Below are positions 3 to 49,309 of a stretch of DNA of 64,000 bases, in pieces. The notes beneath the pieces are model-generated. The model ran no database searches, was not told where the DNA came from, and was given only the letters and a program-made list of their open reading frames with translations. Source of the stretch: an uncultured bacterium (lineage in GTDB: Bacteria; Omnitrophota; Omnitrophia; Omnitrophales; Aquincolibacteriaceae); the NCBI GenBank assembly GCA_964434115.1, contig CAYSSX010000010.1, positions 17,795-81,794 on the forward strand, given 5' to 3'. Position 1 is the stretch's first letter; every line of letters starts with the position of its first letter. The position numbers and the translations under genes are program-made.

Positions 3-518
3 TCTTTTCAGGAGCGCGCGACCCGGGTGTCGCACCGCAACATGGGTCTCCTTGCGCACAAATGCGGGGGGAAAAAACTGGGGAAAATATGCGCCCTGAT
101 CGCGGGCGATGAAGCCCGCCATGAGCAGGCCTATCAGAATCTCTTCAAGGTTTGTCTGAAAGTCGATCCCAGTGAAGCGCTGGTCGCCATGGCCGATATG
201 CTGCTGTCAAAAGTGGTGATGCCAGCGAGACTCATGGATGACGGCTCTGGCCGTGATTTGTTTTCGGATTATTCGATTGTGGCCCAGAAGCTGGGAATTT
301 ATACGACCCGGGATTATGCGGAAATGCTGCTTTTTCTTGCGGAGACCTGGGAAATTGAGAAATTCAAAAATCTTTCGCCCGAAGCCGCGCAGGCGCAGGA
401 AAAAGTCATGAAGACCGCGGAGAAATACCTCCGCAAATCCGAGAGCCTTTCTGCAGCCATCCAGTCAATTGAAGTCAAACCCTTCTCCTGGGTCACCCCG
501 CAAAAAACCCACGCTTAA
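3..518 (+). CDS. Soluble diiron acyl-ACP desaturase (stearoyl-ACP desaturase family), C-terminal part. The 5' end lies outside the window.
   Basis: The frame is open from nt 3, and the GTG at 27 is only the ORF-caller start. The translation (SFQERATRVSHRN...ICALIAGDEARHEQAY...AMADMLLSKVVMPARLMDDG...DYSIVAQKLGIYT) aligns with the C-terminal half of plant and mycobacterial DesA-type acyl-ACP desaturases (FQERATFISHGNTARLA...IAADEKRHE...). The TAA at 516-518 overlaps the stop of the convergent giant gene. Confidence 0.8.
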   Translation, partial: SFQERATRVSHRNMGLLAHKCGGKKLGKICALIAGDEARHEQAYQNLFKVCLKVDPSEALVAMADMLLSKVVMPARLMDDGSGRDLFSDYSIVAQKLGIYTTRDYAEMLLFLAETWEIEKFKNLSPEAAQAQEKVMKTAEKYLRKSESLSAAIQSIEVKPFSWVTPQKTHA

Positions 519-3500: not shown

Positions 3501-6500
3501 GGCCTGGGCGTTACTTTGACATATTTGCGGAACGGGTTTTCCAGGGCGTCCCGCTCAAGCTCTTCCTGGGTGTGGGCCTGAAGGTACGGCGAAAGATCAA
3601 TCGTCATGCGGCCGTCCTGCCGGATCACTTCTTTAAAACTCTCACGGTTCTCGTCACGCAGACGGACAAGCTCCTGCTGGGCCAGAGATTCCTTATAAAC
3701 ATAGGAATCAACCTGTCCCTTATCGTCCCGATGCGTTTCAATAAACTGGGGGAAAAGATAGACCTGAAAAATATCCTCAAATTGATGCGCGATGTTTTCA
3801 AAAGGTTCAGCCTGCCCTTCGTGCAAAACGCGCTGTCCAAAAAAGGCCTGCTGAATTTCAGAAGCAATATCCGTCTTCGTCAAATCCGAAGTTCTATAAA
3901 CCTTCACGGCGCCGTTTTCACCCGCGCCTTCTTCAAAAGAAAGCTCTTCGGAAGACGGCGCACGGCTTTTATCCTTCCAATTCACAAACATGCTGTAATT
4001 TCTTTGGTTAAGAGGCTCGCCTTCCCGGTGGTAGAGCCTTTTCGAAGCCCCGTCATAGAGAACAAACCAGTCCACATAATAAAGATTGTGATAGGAGTAA
4101 ATGTCCGCTTCACGGTAACCCAAAGGCCCAAGCTCAGCTTCAAGTTCTTCCCAAGGCTTATTGACTCTTCTTCCCAAGGGATCATTCTCTTCCCCGCCCA
4201 TCGCGCGCTCAAAAAGTTCACCATCCCAGTAACTTTTCCTGTTCACATGATCAAAACGGAAATGTCCGCTTGCGGTTTCATTAAACAAAATTCTCACATC
4301 ATTCTTTTGAAGATCGTAAACCTCCACAACGTGCGGTGAAGCCGGTTCAGCGGCGCGCAGTTCAGAACGCTCAACGTTCTGAACGCCTTGCTGTGCTAAC
4401 GCATTAGCGGTGGTGCGCAGTTCGGATCTTGCCGTGACCATCTTCACCCGCGGGCGCCCTTCAAGGAGAAGGCGTTTATCTTCCTGCATGCGCTCATACA
4501 TTTTGCGTGAGGGGTAAAGCTGAGTGGGACTGGGAATCCATTTCCGGACATCTCCCTTGAGGAGAAGCGCTGTCACCGCGCGCTGCATCAAGGCCTGCCC
4601 TTGATAGGCAGGAAAAACATCCGTCCGCGTGACAAAATAACTTTGATCCTTGCTCTCGCCCTTCCGGAAGGGGCCATCACCCAGTCCCTCAAGAAACGTT
4701 TCAGCGTCCTGTAAAGTCACAAACCCCATGGCGACTGGATGATCCGGGTCATTGCTCAAAATCACAAGGTGACTGTTCTTATTTCCAGCCGGGGAGGCGG
4801 CCGTGTAAGCATTCAAAAGCACCACCCGGAAAGGACCGGGCGCTGCGAGGGGCGCTTTTTCTTGAAGCAGGCGGAGAGTCTCCCTGTCAATGTCTTCCAT
4901 GTCCGCATACGAATGGTCGGCCAGAATCTCGTAATACCCGTAGCGATGCAAAAAAACCTCGTCATGGAGAAACCGGATCAACTCCCCCGGGACGGAGGCA
5001 TCGGGATTTCCCGCAGTACGAAGCTCGGAACGGTTCCGGATGACCTCACCAAGAGCTTCCCAGAGGGCCCCGAATTCCGGATCCTGATTGTCGACGCGAA
5101 GGCTTTCAAGGGTGGGATACTCCGCCCGGGGGTGAAAGACCTGCCCGTCATCTCTTGTAAAAGTCTGCGGCAGGGTGTCCTCAAGCCTTAAAAGCTTCAC
5201 AAGAAATGCAGTCCCGCGGGCTGAGGCCGTCATCGCAAGAAACCGCTCGGAGCTTTGGTTCAGATCATGAAAGTAACTCTTTAAAAATACTTCCGAGAGA
5301 TTTTCTTTACCGAGATTTGTGAGACGCACAATCACATCCGCAAGATCCAGGAACCTGTAGGCCCTCTCTTCCTCAGGGGTCATTTCCGGTGTTTTCATCT
5401 TTGTGGTATTGAGGTCTCTGAAAATAATTTCAAAGCGGCCTCTCAAAACTTCTATCCCCATGTTCGCCGGATGCGGAAAGCCGTGATAAAACCCTGCCTC
5501 ATGATAATTTCGAAGCGCCCGTCCAATCGCCTGATAAAGAACCTCTTCGGAGCCTTCGTCCATTTCACCTCCGCTTCGGGCCTGAACGGGCGCAACGGCC
5601 AGCGTCACGCCAGAACCTTCGCGCTGGCCAACCGAAGTCACGCGCCAATCGTCTCCGGTGAGACCCGCGATCACAAACCCCGCGGAATTTTCCTGGAAAG
5701 TCATCCCCGGAAAAGTGCCCCAGGCCACGGCATAATCCGTTCGGAACTGCAGCGTTTCACGGGCACGCATCATCACGGAGAATTCGGTCCGCGCATCTTT
5801 CTCCCGCATGCCTCCGGCCAGGGCCGTTTCTGCCGGAACAGCGTTCAGAACACCGCCCCGGTCAGGCACAAGGTAGCGGCGGACGCTCCCCTGTCCGGTA
5901 TAAGGCTGCACACCACCCGCCTCCGTCAGAATAGGCTTAACGCCTTTGAGACGGAGCTGCGTGATTTGAACTTTTTCCTGACTACCGCTTTTCGGGGACA
6001 CTTCCACCGGGGTTTCAAGACGCAGGTAAACACTGCGTCCTTCCTCGCTGAAATCCCCGTCTTCGTTTTTAAAATAAATCCTTCCCGAGCTTTCCCCCGC
6101 CATCCGGCGGACGTCCTCACGGCTTCCCGAAAGCAGTTTCATTAATACTTCCCGGTCATTCCGCCCGAGCTTGGCAAAAAAGCCCTGGTCTTTTTCCACA
6201 GTCACAACACCTGCCGGATCTTCCCATTCTTCACCGTCCCCAGCTGTCCTCAACTCCGAGCGCTGCATAAACTCGCGCTCGCGGCTGTTCATCACACGCA
6301 GGACTCTTCCGTAAACCTGTTCAAGCTGTTTTCTGATCTCCCCGATTTCTTCATAGTGCCGGGCTGTAAATTGCTTCGCGGCCGCGGAATTCACGGCCCC
6401 GGAACCAATCCGGTTTGCGGCATTGTGCCCGTAAATCAAAGGCTTCACACCTTCCCCGACCTCCGAATAATCGTTGAGCGGGCGGTTCGTCAAATCCTCC

Positions 6501-9101: not shown

Positions 9102-9371
9102 ATGACTGATGACCCTTTTGGAAACGAAGAGCTTCAATTTCCGCTCGACTGCCAATTCAGAATCATTGCCGAGAACCGCGAAGGCATGCATTTTGTCATC
9201 GAGACAATCTTAATCGAACAGGGCGTCACGGCACCGCTTGAGCCGCAGAATCTGTCCCACGGGGGTAAATATCAATCCTACCTGGTGATGGTCCGCGTCG
9301 AATCCAGGGATCACATGGGCCGGATTGATGCCGCGCTTCGGAACATCACCGGCGTCAAGATGGTTCTTTGA
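9102..9371 (+). CDS. YbeD/UPF0250 (DUF493) family small protein
   Basis: 89 aa. The sequence ...FPLDCQFRIIAEN...YQSYLVMVRVESRDHMGRIDAALRNITGVKMVL is typical of DUF493. Its stop overlaps the next start (ATGA at 9368-9371). Confidence 0.55.
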   Translation: MTDDPFGNEELQFPLDCQFRIIAENREGMHFVIETILIEQGVTAPLEPQNLSHGGKYQSYLVMVRVESRDHMGRIDAALRNITGVKMVL

Positions 9372-28174: not shown

Positions 28175-28188
28175 ACGCCTCCCATATA

Positions 28189-28204
28189 CCATAAATATTT
28201 ATGG
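28189..28204. promoter_or_regulatory. Perfect 16-bp palindrome CCATAAATATTTATGG, candidate LexA operator (SOS box)
   Basis: An exact inverted repeat immediately 5' of the lexA RBS and start codon. It is AT-rich in a ~55% GC genome. Confidence 0.45.
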
Positions 28205-28724: not shown

Positions 28725-31700
28725 ATGAAAAAAAATCTGCCTCTTAAAATCATGGCCGCTTTCACGGCGATTTCCCTGATGACAGATCCGGGAAACGTCT
28801 ATGCCGCCACCGGTCTGCCCAAAGCAGCTTCTTCCCCAGCAAAAGCTCCCGAAATTTCAGAAACTGCCGGCCAAATGGAAGATTTTTTTCAGGGAACTTC
28901 CGCAAAAACTATTCTCTACATTCAGGACGCCCATGACTCGCTTGAGGCGCAGAAAAACATCGCGTCCCTGATTTCTCAATTCACCGAAAAGGACGGGGTC
29001 AAAACTGTTTTTGAAGAAGGGTATGAAGGCCCGGTTCCGACAGACCGCTTTTTCGGGTTCATACCCGCCTCTGAAATCCGGGAAAAGGTTTCCGGTTTTC
29101 TTTTGGACAAGCTCCGGATCGGGGGCGCGGAATATGCCCATATCAATCGGAAGACAGACTTCAAGCTCATCGGCGCGGACAATCTGGACAAATACAAAAA
29201 AAACATTGAGGCCTTCCGCGCGGCAGCCAAAGAAAATCAAGTCATTGCCCGCGATCTTGACGCCATCCTTACGGAAATCGAGTCCCTGGCGAGTCAGCGC
29301 TTTCCCAAGTCCTTCCGCGAATGGGTGAAACTACGCGACAAATACGACTGCGCGGCGGTTGATCTTCTAGACTACTTAAAGCGCACAAGAAAAATCCTTG
29401 AGACTTCTCCCTCCGGCCTTGCCGGCGTTCCGGAAAAAATTCCGGCCATCGAACTTTTACTTAGGGCTTCGGCTTCGGATCAGAATGAAACCCTGACCAC
29501 TCAAGCCAAAACCATTACCCCTCAAGCCCTGTTTCAGGATCTCGCAGCTTTGGATACCCTGACCGCAGAACGGTTCCTGACCGCGGAAGGAGACCGCCGG
29601 ATTTTTCACTACCGCGAAGCTTTGCATCTTCTGAAGCGCCTTAATCAAATGGAGGTCACGCCGGCCGAGTACGCGGCCTCTCAAAAAATGATTACCGGGC
29701 TCAACACCCGGGAACTGGCCGACTTTATCGCACGCGAATCCAAAAAGTCCCTGGTTCTTTCCAAGGCATGGGAAAACAGCATTCAAAAAGCCTCAGCGTT
29801 TTATGAATTGGCAAAGCAGCGTGACGAAGCCATTGAGAAAACACTTTCGGACTTCCTTCAGCAGCCGGATGAAACCACCGCCGTCCTCGTCTACGGCGGA
29901 TTTCACAAGGCCAACATTCTGTCGATTTTTCAAAAACTGGGCGTTTCCTACGGCATCATCACCCCGAAAATTTCAGGCCCGGACCCCGTTCATGAACGGT
30001 ATTACAAGGAACTCATGGCCGTGGGCCTGCATGACTATGAAAAAACCGTTCTCCCCGCCGCGGGAACTGCCGCACGGGCCACACGACCGCCATCTCTGTT
30101 TGTGGAAACTTTTGGCGAGGCCTCAATCCAGTCGCTTTACCGGACGGTTGAACAAAACCCGGATACGCCGCTTGAACTTCTTGAACGCGAAGTCCCAAGG
30201 TCAGAACTTCGCTCGGAAGCCAGCCCATCGGCAAATCTGATTGCCGCGGATTCAGCGCTTGCGGCCTTCGGCCGAGGTTTAGGCGTCAACTTTAATGTTC
30301 CCGAATCAGCGCTGCGAAACGGTTACTGGCAATACGAAATCAATCCGCTGCCAGCGGAAAGAAAAGTCATTCACAAGCGCATGATTCCGGCCTATAAAAA
30401 CGGCAGTGAACAGCTGCCCACCCATTTGCGTTTAATTTTCAAAGACCGCCAGCCGCTTCTTATTGTCTCTGACGGTATTGCCTGGGGCCAAATCCCTGAA
30501 GACATTCGATCGGCCAATGAAAAGGCCTTCATTGCCCGGTTCGCAGGCGTTTACAAACACCTTTCTCCGGGCAAGGCTCAGAAAAAAGGACGCGAAGAAT
30601 TCTTAAGATCCATTTCAAAAAAACAAATTGCTCTTGGGTTTTCCCTTGTACCCGAAGAAGCCCAGCATCCTTTCTTACTGGCCCAGAGATGGTTCGAAGC
30701 ACAAACCCAATCAGTCGGTACGTACTCTACACAGTTCTTTGATGTGACCAAACCCGAAGACCTGCAGTCCCCCATCCTCACCTTTGAGGGTGTCTACAAA
30801 CCCTACACGGTGAGCAGTCATCTCTTCAGGTCAGGGATCCGTCCTGGGAAAAATTCCCTGGTTTATGTTTTAGGATCAGGGTCGGGCGCGGATGCTCTCC
30901 GCGCCGCGGAAAAGGCCAAAGGCCAGATCCGGATTGTGGCCTCCGACATTGATTCTTTGGCCGCTGAAAACACCCGCTACAACGCTGCACGAAGCCCTTA
31001 CAGTGCAGTCATTGAAGTCCACCGGGCAGATCTTTTTAATATCCCCGGACGGCCGGAAGGTGAACGGGCTGATCATATTTACTTCAACCCTCCCTTGAGC
31101 ATGAATGCAGCGGACGGAAACCTTGCCACGGCAGATGAAGGCATGCGTGTCCTCACCCGCTTCCTGACCGAAGCACCGGATCATCTGAAAGAGACGGGCA
31201 CACTTGAACTCACTTATACCGAGACGCCTGAATTTCTTCATAAAGTTTATTCCCTCGGCTGGGAGCCAGCACTGATTGAGGGGCTTCATCTTTCACGTAA
31301 ACATTTTCCGAACAACCGTTCAGACTATGTCCGCTTCACACTTCGCCGCATGTCCACCAGCCGGACAGCGGAGCTGCAAGAGGTTGTGTCGGATTGGGCA
31401 AAACTGATTCCCCTGCAGAAAAAAACCCGGGGAGGGCCCAATCCCTTTACCGCGTCAGACCTGGCACTGCTGAAAGCCTTGAAAGGAAAGTATTCGGCAT
31501 CCCAGGATTTCACGGGCAGGCTTATTTCAAAAACGCTCTATGCGCTTGAAAAAATTTCACAGGGTCTTACACCGCTTCGTCCCGAAGACGACAAACGCTT
31601 CAACCTGAATTATCCGCAGACGCTTCCCGTCCCCGGCCAGGTTTACCAGCATTCCCAGCGCCAGGAGCTCACGGTCCAAGTCACGCGCCTTGAAAGCAAC

Positions 31701-34700
31701 GGCTCTTTTAATATTCAGTCTTTTCAAGACGGACGGTCTCAAGGCCCTGAACAAATAGTTCCCGAAGAACAAACAGAGGCTTTCCTTCGGGAATTTGCTC
31801 CGGTCCGCAGCGAACTGCGCATGGTGTCTTCTTTTGAAATGGAGCTGGCCTTCGGAGATCTTGCCAAGACTCCTACTTTAAGCGGCGGAAGAAACGATGA
31901 CTTCCTTTACGAGAACGGGAAGAAAGTTGCTGTCATTATGCCTTGGTCGAAATTTATTTACCGGGCGCTGGATTCGGACGGGCGCGAAATTCCCGACCGT
32001 ATTTACAAAATCACTCATTACGCGTCCGAAAACGAAACGCTTTTTGAGGAAGCCAAAAAGATTTTCGCTCTACAGACTCCTGGCGTTTCCAAATTGCAGC
32101 GCATCGGGACGCTGAAAAGCGGCGGCATGTGGGTGGAACTCAAAGGCATTGCTTCAGCACGTTCCATGGACCGCGAAATTTTCGGCAGAACGCCCCGGCT
32201 TTTCAATGTCCTGATCCGGGCCGGAGAGCTGTTAAAAGGTATTCATGAACGCGGGATCGTTCACGGCGATATCAAGCCGGAAAACCTTTTGATCAATAAC
32301 GCCCAGGAACTCGAATGGATTGATTTCGGCGGCAATTTCACACGCGGTTATGTGGCTCTGGATGAGGAAAAGAACCCGATCGAAGACAAAACTTCCCCGG
32401 ACGTGGATGTTTACAGTTTCATCATGATCATTGCGCACCTTTTGGATCATCAGATTCAGGCACAGTCTCCGGAAATCGGCAAAACTCTGCGCCGCATGCG
32501 GGACGAATACCTTCACCTCATTCTCAAGGACTGGACCTTTCAGCGTTTTGAAGAACTGCTTCAGATCGGGGTATGGACAGAGAAGCTGACCCCGCTTCCC
32601 CGTAAAAAATGGCCGAAAGACATGTCGGAAATCACTGAAAAATTAAAACACGATCTTCAGGAACTGTCGGAAAACCATCCTGAATTGTTCACAACCGCGG
32701 TTGAAGAAGAAAAGAAGCTGATTCACGCAAGCGTTCATTCGTCCGAAACCAGGGACACCGCACAGAAACTCAAGCAGCTTCTCGACACTCTTCAGCGTGA
32801 CGGCGCGCTTCACCCCGGGAAAATTGCGGTCACGGATTTGAGCCGGGGCGCGGTCGCTCCCGCGTTCAAAGAACAGGTCGAGGCCTTTTCTCATCAAAAA
32901 GAAATCAGCATTGTCATGGAAGGGGCTTATCTTGACGATTGCTGCCGGCAGGCCTCCTGGACGCTTCTCGAGTATGCCCGGAACAATCCCGAAAAAAATC
33001 TGAACCTCCACTTCCCCGTCGACTTGATCGCGTACCCTCATGACTTTCTCGCTGAATCCGATTCAAAAGAAAAAATCAGCGCGCTGCTCTTTAACCTTGA
33101 GGCAGACGCGGCGGGCCTTTCTTACGAAGTCTTCGTGGACGGTGTAAAAACTGAAAGCACTGATGCGCCAGCCGGCCCCCAGGAGCCGGTTCGCGTGAAA
33201 CTTTACCTGTGGTCTGATTCACTGCTCATGGCCCAGACCGTGACTGAATCCCTCAGGCCCGGTTCCGGGGACCAGAACACAGATTCCCGGTCAGAGTTGA
33301 GGCAGCCCGGGGAAACAAATCCCCTTATCCAAAATCTTTTTTTTGAAAAAGAAATCACGCCTGAAACGATTGCCGCGGCGGAAGCCCTGATTCCAAAACC
33401 CATTCTCGACAGACTGATCCGGGAAGGCTATGAGCTTCCTAAGGGATTCAAGACCCAAGGGGCTCCGGGAGCCGCCCGAAAATTGATTTTGGATATCCAA
33501 AAAGGCGCCGGATCTCTGCAAATTATTTTAAAGGACAGGAAAAACCCCAGTTATGAATTTTTGAAAATTCCGCTCAGCGTCAAAGGGAAACAGCTCGGCC
33601 TCGGCTTCGGCCATTTGAATCAATTCAGTGAGGCAAAAACCGCTTATCCTGGGTACGACGACCCTGTCTTTGCCTGGTGGTTCCTGAAAAACCTCGTTCC
33701 TTTTGCAAAGCAAACAGGCTTTGACGATTTCGACCTTATTCAAGGCCCGCTTTCTGATGATGATTTAACAAAAGCCGGTTTTAAACTTCGCGACGAAGAG
33801 TCTGGCGTTCCTTTATGGATTTATGACCTAAAGCTGCGGGAATCCCGGTCTGAACTAAGGAACGACGGCGAGCGGTTGGAAATCCCGCTGGGAGAAACCC
33901 GGAAAGTGACCGTCGCGGCAGGCGAAAAAATTCTTGTGTCGGGTTTTGATCCGAAACGAAGAACCTCGGCACTGATTGAAATAAGATCCGTTGAAAAATC
34001 CCCGGGAAGAGAAATTGGGGGCCGTTTCAAAGCCCCGCGCCGTGAAGCGGAAATCCGCATCTCTGCACCGCCCGAAATTGTCATTTTGAGGGACACGGAA
34101 TGGCTGGAGTTTCTTTCGGACCACGAAAACCCGGACGCGTCCGTCAACATTTTTGGGCATTGGAACCGTCCGGCACTTTGGGCACTCCGGGACAAACTGA
34201 TCGCGAGGAGCTTTGGCAGGCGCTTTATGAGCTGGCGCGCGTATCTTCCGGAAGAGAGAAAAGTCTACCTCATGGACCTCAATACCCGGGCCCGGGTCGA
34301 GATTGAAATAACGAATACGGATATCGAAAAAAATGAGGCGGACCTGATCCTTCGTCCCGTCGTGAGCGCAGAATTTGGAACAGGGTATTTCGTGCAGGCC
34401 TTTTCAAATTCGCAGCAGCCTGTCTCTGCTATCCGTTCTGAATTGAGCCGAGCTAAAATCAATGAGACAGAGCTCAGTGAAGTCAAAACGCACGCGCAGC
34501 GGGTGGCTGCTGATTTCGGTTTTCCATCCGAGTTCACTAGCTTTGCTGTCCTGGATAAAGTCCACGCGCCAGAAATCGATCCGGATTTGACGGCCTACCT
34601 TGTAAAACTCACAGTCCTTCTTCCCTCTTCCACGGAAACAGAAAAAGAATTTTTAATCGGTCTTGATCAAAACCGCCGGCTTGCGGCGGGTGCCTGGCTG

Positions 34701-37700
34701 ATACCACTCAATGCACAAGAAAAGACTTTTCAGATGGGGCAAACCCGGGCCTTCATCTCCCAAAAGGGCTTGATGCAAAGAACCCTCACCCTTGCCTTAA
34801 AAAGCGGTGTCATCAACACATGGTTTTCAGATACCGAGTACAACCGGTCAGATGATGCGGAAGACATGTATGACCGCCTGATGAAAGACCCGGAACTTAG
34901 CATCGAAGAAATTCAGGACCAGTTCAAGGTGAAGCTCCGTACCCGCTCAGAACTTCGTGCTTTGGCGTCTAACAATGCCGACGCCCCCGCCCTTCTTGAG
35001 GCCTATCCCAAGCTGAAGCAAATCTCGGATGCATGGGAAGAATTTCTTAGAAACTCGGAAGTCGACCGCAATAAATTCCTGAATGCTTATGAAGGCGGCG
35101 CTTTTGTTCGCTCCCCTTTCCAGTGGATGAACTTCATGAAAGAGAACTGGAACCTGAATGCCCAAAGCCGCATTCTGGATGTGGGCAGCGGCAACGGGCT
35201 TGCGGCCATGGCTTTTAATATTCTCACCGGCGCCCAGGTCACATCCATTGAGATCGATCCCATGCGCTGGGTGGTGCTCCAGAATTTTCTCACTTTCCTG
35301 AAGGATCAAAAAGGGCTCGAATTTCCAGGGGTCCGCTTTGAGCAGGGCGATTTTCTAAAATACCCGCTTGAAGGCGTGGATTTCATTTATTTTTATTACA
35401 CGCATCCGGTCGTGCATCAAGCCCGCCAGGGTGACGCCATTGTCGATCGCCTCGAAAATGATCTTCCTCAGGGTGCTGTTTTTGTAAGTCCGGGATTTTA
35501 TCTTGAAGCCGAATACAGCCGCATGCTTCTGAGAAGAATTAACCGTGAAGCCTACTTTGCAGAAACTTCTCTCCATTACCGTGAGGCCAGGCTTCCCCCA
35601 GGAAATCCTCTTCAGCACACACGCACAGCCGTGGTGCTGACAAAACGTATGGATGGGGCGATTCCTGAAAATCCTCCGCGCTCCGAATTGAGAGCTGCTG
35701 AAATTCCCGCGGAGCTCGCAGGCTTCAATTCGAACGCACCTCTTTGGGATTTTCTGAAATCCTTCGGCATTGATCCGTCAAAAGCAAAAATCGAAAAACT
35801 CGAAGGCCCTTGGGGACGCGTGCGCGCAGCCCAGCATGAGGTTTTTGGTGTCCTCCCGGGCTCTGAACTTGACGCGGCTGTCATGGAAAGTGCATTTGCA
35901 GTTTTTGACGCACAGGAAATTCGCGAGCGCCTCCGTCAAAATGGACACCCGGAAGATTCCGCCCTTCAATACCTTTATCTGCTGACTCATGAAAACAAAC
36001 CTGCAGCGTTTGTCTGGGCCATTCCCGGAGCTGCCTTTGAGCCCATATATTATTATCCGCTCAGAGGCAGAGAACAGCAGGCCCTTTGGCCTTCTGCAGA
36101 AGACAGGGGCTCAGACGGAGCCGCGTTAACACTTCCTCCGGAGACCGAGCTTTTTATCCGGCATTTTCACAAGAAAGATTATGGGAAAAACCCGGTCATG
36201 CAGGGCGGCTTGCCGTTGAGCACTCTCGGGCAGGGACTACCCGGAGCACAATTAAGAACCTTTGAAGAAGGCCTCGCTTTTCCTACGGTGTTTAGTTTAA
36301 ATCACGCCAGTTCAAAGGGGCTTGTCGCTGCCGCGGACCTGCTTATTAATAACGGTGTTCTCAGCGTCCGGGATAAAACCATTTCCGAAATCGGCTCTGG
36401 AGCCGGATGGATTGGAACCCAGATGACACTTCGAGGAGCCAGGGAAGCTCATCTGTACGACCTAACCTTGATCAAAGCCGCGAACGCGATGAGCACAGCG
36501 AAGCTCTTCGGAGCGGGTGAACGGGTTCACACTTACCGCTCCAAATCCGCCGATATTCTGCCTTCAAGCGACGTTTACTTCTGGAACATTCCAGATTTTT
36601 CGAGCAGCGCAAGAGATCTGTCAGGCAGCATGCCTCTTGATCAGAAAGCCAGCATCGACGTCAACAATAGAATCCGGATTGAGAGTGTTCAAAAAGTGTT
36701 TCATGAACTCTTGAACGCCTCTCCCGCCAGCGCGTCGTTTCTCGTTAGAATCAACCCGCTTGATGAATCAGCCTTCCGCGGCATGCTTAAAGAATCGGGA
36801 TGGGAGATTCATCCGAAAGCCGCCGGACTTATCCAAAACCCAGGAAGAGGCGGATCTTATTTTCTTTTGAGACCGGAACTTCAGGGAGCCGAAGCCAAAA
36901 CCCGTCAGGCCGAGGACAAACTTTCGCCAGGCCTGCAGAATAATCCGGAGCTGCTTGAAGCTTTCAGGGAAATCGGCCGGGATCTTCTCCCCCTCGGCAA
37001 TCAAATGCCAGTGCTGCTGGTTGAAGGCATGCCGGGGTCGGGGAAATCTTCACGCGCCAAGGATCTCAAAGCGGTCCTCGAAAGCGAAGGCCGAAGAGCG
37101 GTCATCATTCACAGTGAAAGTTATCTTCGAAACGGCCGCTACGACAAGCCTCTTAAAGGTTTCTTCGGCCTGCTCTTCCGGTGGCTCACCCGCCGCCCGG
37201 CCCGTGAACTCCTGGCTTACGCGGTGAGCATGTTTGTCAACGAAGGCACTGTTGCAAACTGGATCCAGCAGATTCAGGAAATCCAAAAGGAACCGGAAGG
37301 TTCGGGATTTTTAAAGATTAATGGAAACCCAAGAGATGACGTCTATATTGGTCCTGAGACGATCTTGATTATAGAAGGCACGCTATCCTCCGTCTTATTT
37401 GCCTCAGTTCCGAACGTCAAAAAACTATTCCTTGATCTTTCAGGTTCAAAAATACGAAGTCAGTTTATCCGCAGAGCCCTTCGGGAAACAAACCTGGGCC
37501 CGGTCTATGCTTTCTTCAAAGCATGGCTTATGGTTCCTGAAATCGCGGTCCGCTTTTTCAGAATTCTTTCACGGAATTTTGATTTTATCTTGAACCTTAC
37601 GGATGAAAAGAGTCCGGTGCTAACCCGGCCGCACAAACTTTCAGGTCAGCCCCATGCCGCAAGTCCGCGGTCTGAGCTCCGGGCTGAAAAATCTGGCCAG

Positions 37701-40700
37701 GGAAAAGACCGCCTCTTTGACCCTGCACAGTCTCCAGGGGAGCTAACGGCCGAAGAAAAAGAAATGATCCGTCAAACGCAGCGGACAGGTTTATTCCGCG
37801 CCGGCCCTCTTGATGAAACAAAACCTCTCTGGCTTTTCGGTGAGCAGGATGTCATGGGACCTTTTATTGCGGGACATCTTGGGGACGCGGCGGCTCCCCT
37901 GATCAAGCCCGAGCTTTATGCGGGTAAAAAAGTCTTAGTCGTGCCCGGGTATGGGAATCTTCCTTTTTTACTGCGTGCTTTTGGTGCACGTGAAGTGACA
38001 GCCATGGACCTCGATCCAGCAACCATTGCCTGGCAGAAACTAAAATGGAAATCGGGTACCGAGGAGCTGCAAAACTGGCTTTTTGTAACCGAAACCTCTC
38101 GCCCCATGATCCGCAGTCATCACCGGAGCGGCTGGGTCTCGAATCTCGATCAACCTCCCGCGGGTGACGTCATGGACCATATGACTTTTCAAACGGGCAA
38201 TATTCTCAACCCCATTCCACTTTCCGGTGAAAAGTATGACCTTGTGGTCATTCCTTATTTATTCGGCTTTGCACACGGGCTGGTGACAGAAGATCAGTGG
38301 GACAAGGTGCTTGAGAATCTTGCCAAAGTCCTCACCCCGGAAGGGCGGGTTATTTTAGTCCCCGGTAAAATGGACCTTTCTAAGTTCAGGGAAAGCGATG
38401 AAAAAAGCCAGACTGAAAACTACCAGATCTGGTTGAATGATCTTGAACGTAAAGGGTGGAAAGTCAGCCACAGCAAGCGTTATGGATTTCATAATATCCT
38501 CGGCTACGAACCCGTCTCGGCAGGGTTCTCAATCCTGACTCCGCGAAGTGAACTGCGTCCGGAAGAACTGGGTTCTTTTTTTCAAAAGGTCCGGGACGTC
38601 TTTGACCACCTGCCGGCGGACTTCAAGCACCGCAATGTGCTGGGTTATGAATTTAAGACTCCGCAGGAAGTTTCAGAACACCTCGGGGGCCTCGGCGATG
38701 AGGTCAGCGCTGCTGTTGCAGGAATTTATCATACCCGGGGATTTATGATGGGCTCCGAAAGCATTGATCCCCAGGATACCGGCAAGCCTGTCCACTCCCG
38801 GACTTTCTGGATAGATCCCTCAAACCCCAACTTTCGATTTGCCGCGCTCCTTGAGGTCATCAAACGAGGCACAGAAGCAGTCGAGGGGGTTTACGATCAG
38901 CGCGACACCGAAGCCGCTGTTAACTTACTCCGGCAGCACCTCGGAGAAAAACCTGAAAAACAGGCCCTTACGGCAGGACTTGCTTCTTTTTCCTCCTGGC
39001 GCACACTTCTGGATGAAGTTATGGTCATGGATCAGCGGAGGATCAGCCGTTCTGAACTCCGGACAAAGACTCAAGTGGAAATGAACTTTGATGTCCCTGT
39101 AGAAATCTCCGGGCTTGCGGAACTGATTGCAAAGGCCCCCACAATAGAAGCATTGGCTCAAGACCCGGCGCAAAAAATCAGGCGCTTTCCGGATGGCACT
39201 TATGGAAATCTTTACGATGCCCCTTTTGGCCATTATCCCAGCTATAAAATTCTCTGGCAAAACGGCGATTTAACCGTGTCTCACCAGCTCTTCAAGGATC
39301 ATCCCCTTGAGATCATTTATTTTTCAGCTGCAAAACAAGGGTCGCTCTTTTCGCTTCAAATTGAATCCGGAAAAATCAAAAAGCTTTACGCTTATGATCC
39401 GTCCCGGATCGAACCTTTTATCTTCTCTCCTCAATCGGAAGGCATGCCGTTCAAAGAAGAAGTCATACGGTGGCTGAAACTAAAAAAACCGGATGATGCG
39501 GCCATCAAGGCCGCTTATGCGCGCGTGGAGAAAGATAAAGCCGATGTTTGGGAAAACCTGGGTGTCATGATGATGATGGACCAGTTTGACACGAGCGTTA
39601 CTGGAAAGGCCCCTGAGATGCTCGCCTCGGACGAGGCTGCACTCACAGCCCGAATCAAGGACATGCATCACGGTATTTTCTGGGAACAAGACTTGTTTCA
39701 ATTCACAGACGGATCCTGGGCTTTTCTAGACGGCAAAAGCGGCTTGGTCCCTAACCTCGAAGATAGTTTCAGAAGCCGTGCCCACATCTCCATTCACAAT
39801 CATCCCATGATGGCACCCGAAGAAGAAAGCGGCATCAGCCGCGGCGACCAGGGCGTTTTCTTGAAAGAAACCAGTCTTAAAGCCGAGTACGTGATCGCGG
39901 ATTATGGAGGCGCTTACAAAATGACCCTGTCGGCAGAAGCTCCTGATCCCGGGGCCGGAGAAAAAATCCTCGAAGGCCTCCAAAAGCACGTCACGCTTAC
40001 AGGGGTTTCACGGGCTTGGGTTCATGACACGGAAAGCGGACGCTGGATCAAAATCGAATATTTACCGGAAGATGCTTTCCAGAAACTCTTCCTTGAACAC
40101 GGTCTCAAAATTTTCACGGATGTGAACCTTGACTGGAAATCTTTCGGTGAAAGTAAACGTTCCGAACTCCGCGCCCCGGAGCAGCCTGAGAAGAGCAAAG
40201 AGAAAGCGGTGAAAGCGCCGGATGAGCTTCAGGTCATGCGTAACAGCCTCCGGCATTTTCTGCGCCGGCAGCTCGCGGGCCGCCCGATTGATCCTTCGAA
40301 ATATGTTTTCATCTCAGACTTTCTTCCCTACCGGATTCTGGCCGCCCGCAATGCGGAAGGAAAAATCCTCGGCTTTGCGTTTGGTAAAAAAGGTAATCGC
40401 CGCATGCACTCGCTGATCACGGAAGAAGGTCATGAGCCTTCTGGTTTTCTCCATGAGAAAGATGAACATGGCGTCCGGATCATCACGTACGTCACAGAGG
40501 GTGACAAAAATTATAAGGAAGATGAATTCGTGCTGGGCCGTTATGGGGATGTGTACCGCCTCAAGATTGAGGAATCCGGAGGCACCCCGACCCAGCAGGC
40601 CATTGAGTACGCCAGCTGGATGCCGAGCTACATGCTCACAAAAGCGCAGGAAGTGGAAGCACTTTCAAAAATCCTTGGGCCTCAGCTTTACGCGGGACTC

Positions 40701-43700
40701 CGGCAGTTCCTTCCCCCTGAAGCAAAACTCGTACTCGCGCCGGGCATGGAACCGGAAGCACGCATGACTTACTGGCCCAGCGTTCAGGGTTCGATCCGCT
40801 CCCGCGAAGAAGTCTTCGGAGGTCTGGATCATGAAGGGTTTGATGTGGCGCATATCCAGACCCCTGACGCTGCTCAGCGGCAGCTGAAGGAAGGAACGCC
40901 CATTCAATCCCTGGTGAATGAAAGGGGCCGGGTCCAATGGGTCTTTGAGGATAATGTTCAATCCACGGCCATTGTGTTAAGTGATCTGGTCATGCCCATC
41001 GGATCCACAAGAATGCTGATCCCGAAAAATCCGGACGATGTGGCCCAGCTTCAAAGACGGACTGACGGCACCATCGGTTTTCCGGAATCCGTGGAAGTCG
41101 AAACGGTAGAAACCCCGGGAGAAAGGTACCGCATCGCATTCGTTTACACGCACCTGAAACTCGAGGATTGGGTCCGGCCCGGCGCTGAAATCAAAGCCAG
41201 CGATCCGAGAACCCTCGGCACGATTGAGCGCCACCGCAAATACCCTTTTTCGCCGGTGGTCCCCCATCTGCACTTTGCGGTCATGCTTTTCAAAGAAAGT
41301 GAAATCGGAAAATACCCTTCGTTGAATTATGATTTGCTCAACAGCAAACTCGGCCCTAATAAAACAGTGCTCTATGTCAACCCGCTCAGTCTTTTGGATG
41401 CGGCCCAGCGCACGGACCTTTTTGTGGAGGGCGATGCTGCCCGTCCGGGTTTTCGCTCCGCGGCGATCCAAGCCCTTGATCCCAATGCTTTAAAATCCGT
41501 GCGTGCCCGGCTGGCGCACACCCTGCTCGGTATTCCAGTCTGGACAGCCGCGTCACCCGCTCAGCTCTCTGAAGAAATGCAGCAAAGCGACCTCGTGATT
41601 CATCAAACACCGGCAGGCTGGGAAATTTTGTTGAGCGGCCTGATGAAAGACAAACTTCTTCATTTGAAAACAACTGCCGCGGACGAAGACGAACTCATCC
41701 AGCTCATCGAGGCTATGGATCTTCAGCTCAGGCGCCCCAAACATGACGCCCTCGGTTTGTCGATGAAAGAAACCAAAACCATGACGCCTTCCGAAACCGT
41801 GGAAGCGATCCGGAGCATGGCCTCGCGGGAAGAAATCAAGGATCATCATGACAGTGCTTTCATTGATGTGGTTCATCCGGATTTCGCACTGGTCAACATC
41901 GGTTACGGCGTGCACGCCGGCCTTCTGACGCCTTCGGATTCAAAAGGCTTCAACACGGATACGAGAATCTTCTTTTTCAGGATTCATTACCGTCCGGACC
42001 GGGAAATTCACGGACAGAAAATCCCTGAATACCTCGTCATCAAACCTCCTTATCTGGTGGAAGATCCTTCTGTACAGAAAGCCGGGGCCGGCGATCTTTC
42101 AAAAATGGAACCCGGTCTTTATACGGATTTAATTTCGCTCGCCCGTTTTCTTTTGGCGGGAGGATTCCCGGAAAACACAAAGATCCGTGTGGATGAATTC
42201 GACAATTTTCCGAATATTCTCGGGACTCTGGCCCTGCATGAAGAGGATGGAGCCCTGCCTCTCGCAAGACTTTCGGCCCTTCCCACAGAGCTTGCGCGTT
42301 CTGAATTAAGAGCTGCGGGGGAAACCTCGGAAGCCGCGGATCAAAAAGAAAGCCTGCTTCCCTCGCTCTGGGCAGGCGCTCGATCCGCTTTTGGGAAGCG
42401 TGTTTTCAGTTATGAGGAGTTCACCGCCAAGGCTTTCCCTGTATCAAAAGCCGTTTTCCGCAGCCAGTTCGAACTTTTGGAAACCCTTGGACTTGCCAGG
42501 GTTGAGCGTGCAGAAGGCATCTCCGGAAGACCACTCCGGGTAAGACTCACACGCGCTGCGGAAAAGTGGACAGCAGACAAACGGCGCATCCATGAAGAGG
42601 AACTCGATTTTCTGCTGCACCAATACAGCCGTCCGGGAGACGAGGAAATTATACGTCCCCAAGTGGCACGCGTGCTTTCGGGAGAACAGCTTTTTAAACT
42701 GCCGGTTCAAGCAGACTCTTATGAAAAACAGGAAATTGACATGTCCAGGGATGACTATTTCTTCCCTGGCCTTGTGATTACTTTCAGAACCCTCAGGAAT
42801 TATTTCGGCAAAGAATATGTCAAGGCCTCCGCTCTTGCAGAACTTCTCAATAAAAACGACGACAAGGGCCGGGCTCTTCGAAAATGGGTGGAAGATCTTG
42901 AAAAACTCGGCCTTCTCGAAACCTCCCGCAAAGGCGCAACGGGAAGCGTTTGGGTACGCCTGCGGCAAGACCTTGACAGTATCAAGGCCGCCAAAATCGA
43001 GCAGGTTCTTCTTGAGTCCTCAAAAACCAAAGCGGATCCTTCTCTTTCCTTCAAAATCCGGAACATTCTGGAAGACCGCGCAGCTCCCGTTGATCAGCAT
43101 AAATCAGCCGTAACAACTCCGCCGGCAAAGGTTCTGGGGCAGTGGAAGCTGACACTGCCGACACTCGTCCGGGCGATTGAGGAAGAAGAACTAGCTCAGC
43201 AGAGCCAGGGGATTCAGGAGCCTTCTGTCCGCTTGAATCAGGTCGCAAAACGACTCAATGTTAACATCACGGCTTTTCATCAAAGTATTCTACAAAACTA
43301 TGTCGATTTGAGGCGGCTTGGTATCCAAGGCCTGGCCCTGGGGCTACCCGTAGACAGCTCAACAACTCCCGAACCCCGAAAAAGGAATCCTCTGGATCTG
43401 GAAAAAGCCCGTCCCGTTTTTGAGCAGTTGATCCGCTCCGCTGTACAGCGCCTGCGCGGCACAGACCCGGAGTTTGCTGAAATTCCCATCAGAACTTCCC
43501 TTCTGGCTTATGAGCTCGGACTCAGTGACACAGGGCTTCGGGATCCGCTGAAGGAGCTCAGCCTTCTTCCGCTCTTGGAAGAGCTGGGGGTCTTTTCATT
43601 CAAGCCTTCAACACCCGCGCTGGAAAATCAGACCCGGGAATTCCTGAAATCCTTAAATCTGCAAGACACCCAGGAGCTGGTCGATTTCACAATCGGGAAA

Positions 43701-46700
43701 TCAGGCACTCGAAGAAAAGCGCCTTCAAAAGATCCTTCCTTTGATACAGTGCAGCGGGTCTTGGACAAATGGATCAACGAGCAGGATATCCGCCGAAAGC
43801 AGCGCCGCAGAGACTATGTGGAGGCTCTTCAGCGCCAGGCCGTGGAGGATTACGAGGAAGCTCTTCCGGCTTCAGCCGGGCTGGACGAAAAGAAAAAAGC
43901 GCTGCGAGCTCTTTTCCCCGGCCACCCAGCACTCCTGGAAGAAGCGGGACTGGATCCCGCCGCTCAAAAACCCCTGGATGAATATCTGATACCCGCAGGC
44001 GTCCGGACAAATTTTGAAGGCTATCTCCGTGACTTCAGAAGCGGGTTCCTTAACGAGCTGGGTGTATTGAAACTGCATACCAAAATTAACTTTCAGATTC
44101 TTATGGCCGCAGTTGAAGCGCGTGACAGAACAGCTGCCGCTGATGAAATTAAAGCCGAAAGATTCACGGGTTTTGGTGTTTCAAGTTTTGAAGGTGTCAT
44201 GCAGAAGGCTAAGAAAATGAAGACACTCCAGTCCTTTTGGAGTGCGTGGGATTTGGCTGACCAGTACCCTCCTCTTGGCGGCGAAATCATCAACGAGCTT
44301 AAAACCCTCGACCGTTTTTATGGAAACCGTTCCGAGCTCCGCAGCATGAATGAAGCCGCTCTGAAAGAGACTCTCAAAAAGAGCACTGATCTTATGACCT
44401 GGTTCCAGGCCCTTGGAAATTTCGAACCCGAAGACCTGAATCAAAAAATACAAATCACGCTTCAGATCTCAAGGGGCATTCAATTGAAAATGCCGATGCT
44501 TCGCTCCCTGCTGACAGATCCTGAATTTAAAGCATCCGCGCACCGCTTCATCGCAGCCTGGATTTATAACCTCTCCGTTGTTTACGGTACCGGTTTTGCT
44601 GCCGCCGGCGTGGAAGGCGAACCCGATCTTGTCGACATCAAGCTCCTTGAAGACCTCCTGACCTCGGGGGATTTGTCCAGCATCCGCGAATCCCTGGGTA
44701 AAGGGCCGGAGAATCCTCTCGGTATCCGTAATTACGCTAACGCGGGGCGCGAAGTGGTCATCAAGCGGCTTAATGAGCTCACGGATCAGGAAAAAGAAAT
44801 CACGCCCACGGCTATGGACATCAGACTTCAGACCGAAGTCGCTGGAGCTTATCTTGGTGTTGACGTGGGCGGAGGCTCCGCCAAGTGGGCGGTCATCAAA
44901 GACGGACAAATTCTTTCCCTGCCCGCGGAATTAAAGAGCACGACCACTCTTTTACTGAACACGGCCGGAGATCCTGTCAAAGAAACCGCGGCGGAATACG
45001 TAACGCGTCTCACAGCTCATGCTCAGAAAATTCTCGCTTATGTCGGCCAAACCTACGGCATTGAAAAATTTGACGGCGTGGGGATCGACATCCCCGGTGC
45101 TGCGGACTTTGAAAGCAACCGCATGGTGACGCTGGGCCAGATTCCGGTGAAGAAAGAATGGAATCAGGGGGATGTGGAATGGGCGGGGCGGGAAATTCCC
45201 CTTCAAATGGCGGCGGCACTCGATCTTGATTCAGGGCATGTCAAAATCCGCAACGACATGGATGGTGTTCTTCCCGGGGTCGCATCGGTGCTGGCTCAGG
45301 CCAAACCGGATTTCTGGACAGAAACTCAGGGGAACTTCGGCTTTGATTGGATGGGCACCGGCCACGGTAACCAGTATGCTGTGGGCGGCGTTCCGATGAA
45401 CGCTCCGACAGAGTCCGGACACATGATGTTTGAATTCGGAAAACCCGGCAAAGGAATCTTCGACACCGAGGCCTACACAAGTATTCCGAGCATGCTGGCC
45501 TATGCCCGCGCACTCGTTCAACAAAAAGGCATTACCTGGCATGAAATCTCAAGCGATCAGCTGAAGCCCTTGGCAGATCAAGCATTCTATGAGGGTGCCA
45601 ACTCCGTAGAATTATCCAAAAAAGAAATCGCTCTTCGAGTTTTCGACCGCTTTGCTGAAAAATACGCGGCCAACCTTGCGCAGCGTTACACCCTTGCCCG
45701 GGGAAGCGTCTACGGCAATGCGGCCGACGTTCTTTTGGGCGGCGGCATTGCCCGCGGACAAACCGGCGCACTTTTAAAAGACCTCACAATGGAAAAGCTA
45801 AAAGCCTATGGTCTGGAAAGCGCCATTCGCATTACCGTGATTCAGGACGATGACATCCGCGCGGCCGGTCTTGATCCTGATGATGTCGGGCCTGTCGGGT
45901 CAGCTTATTTTATTCAAAGTATTCTGGCCAATCAACCGCCGGCTCCAAACGGCCGGGACTTTGAACTCGGGGGCATTTCTCAGGGCACAAATGACACTGA
46001 AATCAATACCGCTTCAAAACGTCTTCTCGAACTCATGTCCGGCAAAGCGGTTTCCTGGATCCAGCCCGGAATACCCGGTGGTGAGAGTGAACGTCGTACG
46101 GTCATCCTTTCGGATGAGAGCGAATACTTTCAGTGGCGCACAACCCCGGATCAAAAACCTCTCCGGGCGGATCTCCACTTCCACAGCCGTCCCGCGGAGG
46201 AAGAAGTCCGGGCCTTCCCGAATCTTGAAAAGCTTCAGGCTGGCGACCCCGAACTGGCCGCTCTCACCTCCGACTTCGGAAAAATTTCCGGAAATTTTTT
46301 CAAAGCTCCCGATGGAGAGATCGTGTTTATCGTGAGCGTTGTACAGACCGGTGAAAACTGGAGACTTCTCGAAAGAACCACCAAGAACCGATATGACCCT
46401 CACCGGGGCTCAAGTGAGCGCCCTGAAGGAAACCGTTACAGCTGGTATGGAGCGCTTATCGCGTCCTTGGAAGACGCGCTTCGTGAAATGGGCATTCACA
46501 AAATCGCGGTCCTTTCCTCGGACGGCGTCAAAGAAATCCGTGACATCAGCGGCATCAAAATTCAAGACCCGATCACACAAAAAATGTACGGTAAGCCCGG
46601 CCCAGGCTACAGCGCAGACAGGATCACGCTGACCGCACCCGGGGAAACGCATGAGCTTCAAGTCTGGGTCAAGCCGCTTGGCAGCGAAACGCGTTCTGAA

Positions 46701-49190: not shown

Positions 49191-49309
49191 GCCCCTCCTG
49201 TTCCTATAACCTTAGCATATCGGCACAGTTACGGCATTACCGCAGGCCGTTTATCAGCCTTTTAAGCCCCCTTCCGGTTTGACGGGGCCGTCCTCAACCA
49301 CGTACACTA

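Follow-up and report, generated by a model that had tools for sequence, protein, structure and literature searches.

A divergent Ser/Thr kinase cassette in a giant, putatively Sec-exported bacterial polyprotein with pentapeptide-bounded modules

We analysed a 64-kb stretch of DNA (64,000 nucleotides (nt); hereafter the window) from contig CAYSSX010000010.1 of an uncultured bacterium and found in it a giant open reading frame (ORF) at 28725..47210 on the forward strand (+), which runs without interruption for 6161 amino acids (aa) and a stop codon. Judged by its sequence, this ORF looks like the gene of a modular multi-enzyme polyprotein that is exported by the Sec system. Copies of the pentapeptide RSELR, one of them varied to RSELS, divide the protein into 15 modules of 168–788 aa. 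Module 3 (aa 1028–1521; 31806-33287, +) is bounded by such junctions and consists of a protein kinase fused to an extension domain of unknown function (aa 1318–1521; 32676..33287, +). A second, shorter polyprotein gene with the same kind of junctions lies at 515..8914 on the reverse strand (−).

The kinase cassette proper (aa 1028–1317; 31806..32675, +) is predicted to encode a Ser/Thr kinase of the Hanks type, or eukaryotic-like protein kinase (ePK). It contains the whole span 31880–32620 in which a sequence-only reading of this DNA had recognised a probably active kinase core embedded in a signal-peptide-bearing protein. The catalytic Asp, the Lys of the HxDxKxxN motif and the DFG Asp, which that reading had described as preserved, are all there: the peptide IVHGDIKPENLLINNAQELEWIDFGG, encoded in the frame of the giant ORF at 32256-32333 (+), holds HGDIKPEN and DFG, with the catalytic loop H1180-G-D1182-I-K1184-P-E-N1187 at 32262..32285 (+) and the D1200-F-G motif at 32322..32330 (+). 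By its residues, D-I-K-P-E-N is a catalytic loop of the Ser/Thr type, and the HGD makes this a non-RD kinase. The Pfam hidden Markov model (HMM) PF00069 (Pkinase) matches the window kinase with 34.2–35.4 bits (E 2.3e-8), above its curated gathering cut-off of 31.7, and other kinase models of Pfam match the cassette far more weakly (APH and Kdo, E 0.071; OspG_kinase, E 0.19; ABC1). When the cassette was searched against the PDB with phmmer, residues 59–192 aligned to RIPK1 (E 1e-5), with FEEAK of the cassette paired with LLEEAK of the RIPK1 αC helix. An extra β-hairpin-like insert lies ahead of β3.

A word-indexed search of 5.8 billion proteins with the kinase segment returned four generic kinases only and no close relative. 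The true relatives were found through an exhaustive search of 1.84 billion representatives, which gave 946 proteins at E<=1e-3, of which 20 reached E<=1e-10 and 7 reached E<=1e-30, together with scans of contigs. Orthologues of the kinase exist at locus L003 in a metagenome-assembled genome (MAG) of GTDB (89% identity), on the 189-kb metagenome contig L006 (76%) and in protein P0049 (59%). We aligned nine family members with 31–89% identity (alignment A4), numbered from the R of RSELR, which is aa 1028 of the protein. The invariant columns include K68, H153, D155, P158, N164, F174, D199, D201, S204, F205 and R266. K68 is K1095 of the protein (R-I-Y-K-I; 32007..32009, +), which we took as the candidate β3 Lys on the strength of its invariance and of the strand pattern around it, R-[IV]-x-K-[IV]; a strand at 61–72 and a helix at 77–90, both predicted in a low-confidence AlphaFold2 (AF2) model, agree with this assignment. 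The candidate αC Glu, E1109 (FEEAK; 32049..32051, +), is Glu in eight of the nine members and Asp in P0049, and the DFG Asp is likewise kept in eight. The αF Asp, D1228 in D-x-x-S-F, and the Arg between αH and αI, R1293, are invariant in the family. All of K1095, E1109 (Asp in P0049), HGDxKPxN, D1200-F-G and D1228-x-x-S-F are carried by the window kinase and by its three orthologues, so the conservation of the catalytic residues among orthologues, on which the sequence-only reading had staked its case, holds, as does its other condition, a match to the Pfam Pkinase HMM.

The Pkinase model matches all nine family members (best E 3.7e-14). A profile built from the nine retrieved 1415 solved kinase chains at E<=1e-3, covering the fold from β3 to αH; PKR (4.9e-11; positions 144–263, through αH) and RIPK1 (1.5e-10; positions 58–222) were the top matches, followed by PknB and PknA of Mycobacterium and by p38. 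The ratio of nonsynonymous to synonymous substitution rates (dN/dS; Nei–Gojobori) is 0.046 for the kinase domain against L003 and 0.093 against L006, and 0.128 for the N-terminal domain of the polyprotein; these values point to strong purifying selection on the kinase domain. We consider it quite likely that the kinase is complete and catalytically active. To judge from these profiles, it is a very divergent new member of a well-known fold, and the earlier suggestion of an active core is borne out as far as sequence goes. What that reading had missed is that the kinase is of the HGD (non-RD) kind, that its Gly-rich loop is degenerate and that it is fused to an extension of ~200 aa.

The peptide that bounds the cassettes is RSELR, which occurs 13 times in the 6161-aa ORF, with RSELS once more; 0.014 occurrences are expected from composition, and no other 5-mer of the giant ORF, overlaps of RSELR aside, recurs more than twice. 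The first junction lies at 30198 (+), the one that opens the kinase cassette at 31806..31820 (+) and the one that closes the kinase-plus-extension module at 33288..33302 (+). The 11 remaining junctions, of 15 nt each, span 33846..46706 (+) and start at 33846, 34434 (RSELS), 34944, 35679, 37668, 38544, 39048, 40158, 42297, 44328 and 46692. The codons of the 15-nt motif differ at every site. Thus, RSELR is conserved as a peptide and not as DNA, and we rejected the idea that it is a DNA-level repeat or recombination site. The embedding of the kinase can therefore be put more sharply than before: the kinase occupies one RSELR-bounded cassette of the signal-peptide-bearing protein.

We scanned all 15 modules with Pfam. 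S-adenosylmethionine (SAM) methyltransferases were found in modules 2 (Pfam MTS; 30198..31805, +), 7 and 9; module 8 contains a P-loop (KTI12/AAA-like) region. No peptidase domain was detected in any of the 15, and the remaining modules have no Pfam annotation. Searches of the PDB with modules 12, 13 and 14 by phmmer gave no matches. Two motifs that had caught our eye, GVDVGGGS in module 14 (ASKHA/ROK-like) and HLHF in module 12 (M23-like), are supported by neither the Pfam nor the PDB search. The C-terminal module (172 aa; 46692..47207, +) ends in ...RILSTLVIAYSA-COOH; a homology search with it yielded four short fragments only, and Pfam nothing.

The protein begins with a putative Sec-type signal peptide (aa 1–27; 28725..28805, +), recognised by inspection. 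Its n-region is MKKNLPLK, its h-region IMAAFTAISLM (11 residues) and its c-region TDPGNVYA/A, with the predicted mature protein beginning Ala-Thr-Gly. The ATG at 28725 is the earliest possible start and follows an in-frame stop, and the frame of the L003 orthologue opens one codon 5′ of the start. A basic n-region, an h-region within the 7–15 residues usual for substrates of signal peptidase I (SPase I) of the Sec pathway and a small-x-small c-region are thus all present, by inspection, at the true N-terminus. A c-region with the cleavage-type pattern (V/S/G)-(Y/F)-A is kept across the family, and the same layout occurs in P0005–P0025, in P0049 and in L006. On the Kyte–Doolittle scale, no 19-residue window exceeds 1.6 in all 6161 residues, the signal peptide included. 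The giant ORF therefore appears to have no membrane anchor, the N-terminal hydrophobic stretch being too short for one. The Lys-rich n-region predicts an orientation with the N-terminus inside and the C-terminus outside (N-in/C-out), with the bulk of the giant protein outside, and we regard export through Sec as reasonably likely.

A comparison with relatives suggests how the cassettes move. In BLAST alignments of the window modules with those of L006 and P0049, the matching blocks start, in most cases, at the first residue of each of the two modules. L006 and P0049 have no counterparts of window modules 2, 6, 10, 11 and 13 and in turn have modules that the window lacks. Cassettes are thus gained and lost exactly at junctions. 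In L003, L006 and P0049, the kinase cassette directly follows the N-terminal domain, and the methyltransferase module 2 is absent, the gap falling precisely at the junction; module 2 seems to have been inserted recently, as a cassette, between the N-terminal domain and the kinase, and no source for it was found. The kinase cassette occurs twice in P0048 (at aa 2431 and aa 3360) and at aa 718 in P0050, and in L006 it is 299 aa long and flanked by RSELR at either end. In L003 and in the window, the kinase runs without a junction into the ~200-aa domain, which in P0053, P0067 and P0074 forms a separate junction-bounded module. The kinase and the extension join in the window at L-S-E-N-H (aa ~1314–1318; nt 32660–32680, +), which looks, by its letters, like a decayed RSELR junction. 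There is also a free-standing relative, P0051 (L011 617-1507; JGI Ga0436674_0033128), of 296 aa and 43% identity, with WIDFE for DFG, without a signal peptide or junction motif, and with unrelated flanking genes. Since P0051 stands free and lacks a signal peptide, it suggests that a cytoplasmic-type kinase was recruited as cargo.

We found 43 homologues of the N-terminal 491 aa, of which every named one is a protein from a 'Candidatus Omnitrophota/Omnitrophica' MAG, with 39–47% identity; for this reason, the polyprotein family probably belongs to Omnitrophota. Full-length relatives of 3–6.8 kaa (thousand amino acids) are P0048, P0049, P0053, P0065, P0067, P0070, P0074, P0110 and P0162, which share a signal peptide whose c-region reads x-(Y/F)-A, the N-terminal domain, cassettes separated by RSE[LMV]R and the C-terminal module. 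Position 4 of the junction is Leu in 44 of 57 sites; A, S or T is favoured right after the motif and P, S or A right before it. In P0053, the junctions read [RKH]SEL[RP], and the motif recurs in tandem 20-aa spacers. P0068 (5059 aa) keeps this architecture with 13 copies of GARLA instead of RSELR; one GARLA lies 18 residues from its C-terminus, and P0013 likewise has an RSELR 17 residues before its end. Such constancy of the junction peptide inside one lineage, combined with its complete replacement in another, would be expected if the peptide were a recognition site that evolves together with whatever reads it. Minimal versions exist as well, P0025 with the N-terminal domain and the C-terminal module and no cargo, and P0013 with one cargo cassette. 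The C-terminal module is poorly conserved, and every family member ends in -[AS]A-COOH.

Two further observations concern the ends and the cargo of these proteins. An amphipathic C-terminal tail of ~12 residues is found in every member (47172-47207, +, and 518-553, −, in the window) and is directly preceded, in P0013 and P0068, by an additional copy of the junction peptide; this tail may serve for sorting or for recognition by a protease. At L013 (35-3037), a separate gene for a ROK-family kinase and several small unknown genes come after the P0025 gene, and operon neighbours of this kind may, in fused form, be what the cargo cassettes of other members are.

The N-terminal domain (aa 28–491; 28806..30197, +) is the sole universal globular part of the family and for that reason the best candidate for a reader or cutter of the junctions. 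Residues D68, H70, E98 and R366 are the same in all members, E74, E136 and G391-G392-F393-H394 in almost all, and the relatives share the motifs IPxELG, YIQDAHDSLEAQ, FEEGYEG, GAEYAH and GGFHK. An AF2 model from a 23-sequence alignment (mean predicted local distance difference test score (pLDDT) 85.4; predicted template-modelling score (pTM) 0.78) has an α/β core with a large helical insertion, with low-confidence stretches at 444–465 and 489–491, just ahead of the first junction. Foldseek against the PDB placed the erythromycin-esterase-like BcR135 (2rad, 3b55) and EreC (6xcs) in the top three and ChaN (2g5g) 15th. Two of the 23 members of the domain match Pfam ChaN (PF04187; Tiki superfamily), with a best E of 8.5e-5. 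The Tiki/EreA/ChaN superfamily includes the Tiki metalloproteases. A hydrolase of the Tiki/EreA/ChaN type is consistent with these hints from the model and the sequence, which are inconclusive, and it is doubtful, though conceivable, that this domain is the junction protease.

The second polyprotein (2799 aa; 515..8914, −) has a signal peptide, a paralogous N-terminal domain (42% identity), seven RSELR and the C-terminus ...YQASLVIEMAA. Its junctions start at 7078, 6262, 5032, 4429, 4369, 1927 and 1093 (−); 0.011 occurrences are expected, and two junctions are just 20 aa apart. By Pfam, its cargo gives a weak HAD-like match only and no detectable kinase, and a kinase-like loop that we had noticed in this ORF is unsupported by Pfam. 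We also considered that the kinase phosphorylates the invariant Ser of the junctions and dropped this idea because the second polyprotein has junctions and no detectable kinase. Directly upstream of the second polyprotein gene lie a methyltransferase, a flavin adenine dinucleotide (FAD) monooxygenase and a type III polyketide synthase (PKS) gene (9368-12389, +). The same PKS trio is found in L012 (4871-7822), where it immediately precedes the orthologue of the first polyprotein. Since the trio adjoins different polyproteins in the window and in L012, rearrangement or duplication of the polyprotein locus is indicated.

We then inspected the surroundings of the giant gene. A LexA gene (S24 peptidase and LexA DNA-binding domain; 27548-28192, −) is divergent from it. 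The two genes directly adjoin in the window only: an extra ORF separates them in L003, and the PKS trio and other genes do so in L012, and in L006 an ORF of the same size as LexA lies farther upstream. A conserved short element, ATTTG(C/T)CA...CGGGTAA(T/C)CTTA, is found 20–60 nt 5′ of the ATG at three loci; no SOS box was identified upstream of the giant gene, and the upstream intergenic region contains no inverted repeat. Directly 3′ (47220-50506) are a CHASE2 histidine kinase gene and then a FecR/LipL45-like lipoprotein gene, an arrangement kept in L012 (21980-25346), and a regulatory link of these neighbours to the giant gene is possible. No tRNA or Rfam features were found in the window.

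From these features we infer a course of events that involves catalysis, export, cleavage by a particular protease, delivery into another cell and phosphorylation of a substrate there. The giant protein would cross the inner membrane unfolded through Sec. The junction peptides would then serve as recognition sites for a protease, with the N-terminal domain as the prime candidate, and cutting would free the kinase, still fused to its ~200-aa extension, along with the other enzymes. Inside a prey or host cell, the freed enzymes would act as an effector cocktail, much as in the MARTX toxins. Taken as a whole, this reading of an active non-RD Ser/Thr kinase, carried as a cargo cassette of a Sec-exported polyprotein, released at the junctions and acting inside a target, seems to us evenly balanced between right and wrong. 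Proteolytic processing at the junctions, taken alone, we put at even chances, and action of the released enzymes inside a prey or host cell we hold to be less likely than not.

The sequence-only reading had offered two uses of the signal peptide. Its proposal that the kinase acts outside the cytoplasm of the producer, on a host or prey cell, is plausible and is favoured because the signal peptide is short and has a conserved c-region, because there are no other hydrophobic segments and because the sister cassettes depend on SAM or ATP. Action inside the target cell is suggested because the kinase, the SAM methyltransferases and the P-loop NTPases need cofactors that the periplasm and the medium lack. 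The other use, membrane targeting only, is disfavoured, as ~11 residues of h-region do not suffice for an anchor and N-in/C-out is what the Lys-rich n-region indicates. The earlier interpretation is thus supported in part: sequence backs the probably active core and its embedding, and the membrane-targeting-only option loses ground.

The literature on Omnitrophota fits such a scheme: these bacteria are thought to be predatory or parasitic and to up-regulate giant proteins on attachment (PMC10066038; 10.1101/2023.11.21.568195). Cleavage of Omnitrophota giant proteins into several products has been proposed, and according to the 2023 preprint there is no information on cleavage points (10.1101/2023.11.21.568195). 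We tentatively suggest that RSE[LMV]R/GARLA is the processing code of an undescribed group of Sec-exported Omnitrophota polyproteins, with the N-terminal domain as the co-evolving protease and a cocktail of enzymes going into prey or host; this wider proposal is more apt to fail than to hold.

Several observations weigh against the interpretation developed here. As to the kinase, the Pkinase HMM covers a stretch of 33 residues only (cassette 143–175, from the catalytic loop to DFG), and the single-sequence AF2 model of the cassette is unusable (pLDDT 39.5), so that the fold rests on sequence profiles. The Gly-rich loop GxGxxG is degenerate (LSGGRND), even this being missing from some members, and APE is not conserved in the family. 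A degenerate Gly-rich loop is tolerated in several bona fide kinases; it lowers the case for ePK membership and does not exclude it. The HMM alignments shift the β3 Lys, with K45 of RIPK1 falling four residues upstream of K68 and K296 of PKR two downstream. Among the distant paralogues, one cassette of P0048 (P0048b) has NFS for DFG, and the other (P0048a) and P0050 have Gln for the catalytic-loop Asn. Because these paralogues have lost key residues, not every cassette of the family is likely to be active and some are probable pseudokinases; the orthologue group of the window, judged by its residues, is not among them.

As to release and delivery, a Pro at P1′ of one junction (RSELR-P) disfavours a simple cut after the second Arg. 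The Foldseek matches of the N-terminal domain are weak (E 0.03–0.3, probability 0.57–0.72, TM-score about 0.2), and the window protein itself falls below the cut-off of PF04187 (E 0.11). Among the neighbours of the giant genes of the window, L012, L013 and L014, which are metabolic or regulatory genes, no dedicated protease or secretion gene is conserved; the S24 peptidase found upstream is LexA. Nor did we identify a path by which the protein could cross the outer membrane or enter a target cell. The assignment to Omnitrophota, finally, has the N-terminal homologues with 39–47% identity as its sole basis.

Other explanations were weighed as well. The most probable of them, which we still hold to be unlikely, is an uncleaved multi-enzyme scaffold, either exported or held in the envelope, in which the RSExR and GARLA peptides would be linkers or docking peptides for a chaperone or an assembly partner and the kinase would act in cis or locally on neighbouring modules. 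The lack of a Pfam protease domain in the ORF and of a conserved one nearby is in its favour, and so is the Pro after one junction; the literature also treats Omnitrophota giants as possibly single products and does not settle whether they are cleaved (10.1101/2023.11.21.568195, 10.64898/2026.06.07.730766, PMC10066038). However, an invariant pentapeptide at every boundary, swapped wholesale between lineages and lying in variable low-confidence linkers, bears the hallmarks of a sequence-specific recognition site like those of viral polyproteins. Passive linkers are not conserved in this way, and the tandem 20-aa spacers that repeat the motif are hard to explain structurally.

A second alternative, clearly improbable in our view, is that the kinase is an ecto- or periplasmic enzyme, which would act in the periplasm of the producer, on its surface or in the zone of contact with prey, using ATP from lysed prey. 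FAM20C, a secreted kinase, and CotH, a spore-coat kinase, are parallels for this. The presence of a signal peptide without a recognisable translocation apparatus would fit such a role, and Omnitrophota giants have been proposed to act on the surfaces of target cells (10.1101/2023.11.21.568195, PMC10066038). The sister SAM methyltransferases and P-loop NTPase-like enzymes, however, also need cytoplasmic cofactors. Moreover, the kinase is a generic ePK nearest to PKR, RIPK1 and PknB, and no CotH, FAM20 or secretory kinase is among the best 60 PDB matches listed.

It is very unlikely, in turn, that the cassette is a pseudokinase, kinase-like in fold but with a binding role instead of a phosphorylating one, or a small-molecule kinase acting on a lipid, sugar or antibiotic, like the APH, Kdo and choline kinases. 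Such a view can draw on the degenerate Gly-rich loop and APE, on the paralogues that lost the DFG Asp or the catalytic-loop Asn and on weak secondary Pfam matches to ABC1, Kdo, APH and choline kinase. It is countered by the orthologue group of the window, in which all catalytic residues are intact with dN/dS of 0.05–0.09, and by a Pkinase match that is orders of magnitude better than APH/Kdo (2.3e-8 vs 0.071). The C-lobe also looks ePK-like, with the αF D-x-x-S-F, the invariant αH–αI Arg and the alignment with PKR through αH.

The least probable view, that the N-terminal segment tethers the giant protein to the inner membrane and the kinase is an ordinary bacterial signalling kinase in the cytoplasm, can invoke the 2026 preprint, which predicts most very long Omnitrophota proteins to be membrane-anchored with their bulk cytoplasmic (10.64898/2026.06.07.730766), and the free-standing relative P0051 without a signal peptide. 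Against it speak an h-region of ~11 residues that stays below the transmembrane score over a 19-residue window, the N-in/C-out indication of the Lys-rich n-region together with a small-x-Ala cleavage pattern conserved across the family, and the place of the giant protein in the minority class that has a signal peptide only.

Against the background of known systems, a kinase cassette released from an exported polyprotein, as we favour, has several partial counterparts. With the Hanks-type kinases (PF00069), the window kinase has in common the HxDxKxxN loop, DFG and, as candidates, the β3 Lys, the αC Glu, the αF Asp and the αH–αI Arg. It differs in HGD instead of HRD, in the degenerate Gly-rich loop, in the lack of a clear APE and in the insert before β3, and it is a cassette in a putatively exported polyprotein instead of a free-standing or receptor kinase. 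The translocated effector kinases YpkA/YopO, LegK1-4, OspG/NleH, SteC and HopBF1 are single proteins that pass through type III or type IV systems into eukaryotic hosts. The likeness to them lies in a kinase of eukaryotic-like fold that leaves the bacterium and works in a different cell, as would be the case here; no type III or type IV secretion system was found in the 64-kb window. In viral polyproteins, such as those cut by the picornavirus 3C protease or the potyvirus NIa protease (TEV sites), the junctions are sequence-specific and the recognition peptide differs between lineages. They resemble the window's family in a short, strict peptide at each boundary of functionally unrelated modules. 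In contrast to them, this is a cellular bacterial protein with predicted Sec export and with no recognisable 3C-like or other protease cassette.

The MARTX toxins of Vibrio and relatives (PMC6315884, PMC5218395) likewise measure several thousand residues and have conserved ends that flank variable, shuffled effector modules. Their modules are freed by proteolysis and act in the cytoplasm of the target cell, whereas in the window's family such a release step is only proposed. MARTX toxins use type I secretion, lack a Sec signal peptide and have Gly-rich repeats and an InsP6-activated cysteine protease that cuts after Leu. By Pfam, no MARTX-defining domain is present in the 15 modules, and there is a Sec-type signal peptide instead; the window's family further differs in its Tiki/EreA-like N-terminal domain (a weak match) and in a strict pentapeptide at every junction. 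We therefore point to a likeness of design and do not claim membership.

The Omnitrophota giants called 'Archaeovorins', and related ones, come from the same probable phylum and are also multi-enzyme proteins with methyltransferases, kinases and P-loop NTPases (10.1101/2023.11.21.568195, 10.64898/2026.06.07.730766, PMC10066038). Proteins of this type have been described with lengths above 30,000 aa, numerous transmembrane helices and peptidase domains of the C39/S8 kinds (10.1101/2023.11.21.568195), in contrast to the window protein with 6161 aa, no transmembrane window, no Pfam peptidase and a signal peptide only. Term searches of these papers on the giant proteins found no junction motif (10.1101/2023.11.21.568195, 10.64898/2026.06.07.730766, PMC10066038). 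Within the literature searched, both the RSExR/GARLA code and a family with a signal peptide only, this N-terminal domain and such cassettes appear to be undescribed.

A kinase that forms one cassette of a putatively exported polyprotein is a new variation on effector kinases and multi-effector toxins. Its setting outweighs the kinase itself: a constrained, movable kinase cassette sits in a protein in which every module boundary carries the same pentapeptide. If the junctions are cleavage sites, this motif offers a simple rule for splitting the polyproteins into units for modelling and expression. It would also make directly testable whether and where the Omnitrophota giants are cut, and it would supply the cleavage points that earlier work on these giants called unknown. 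Cleaved junctions would make the family a bacterial counterpart of viral polyproteins or a Sec-dependent analogue of MARTX. The probable source phylum consists of uncultivated, ultra-small bacteria that are suspected predators. If the reading is right, this would be the first protein kinase predicted to be aimed at prey by a nanobacterial predator, and, given cleavage at the junctions, protein phosphorylation and methylation would become candidate weapons of these bacteria against their prey.

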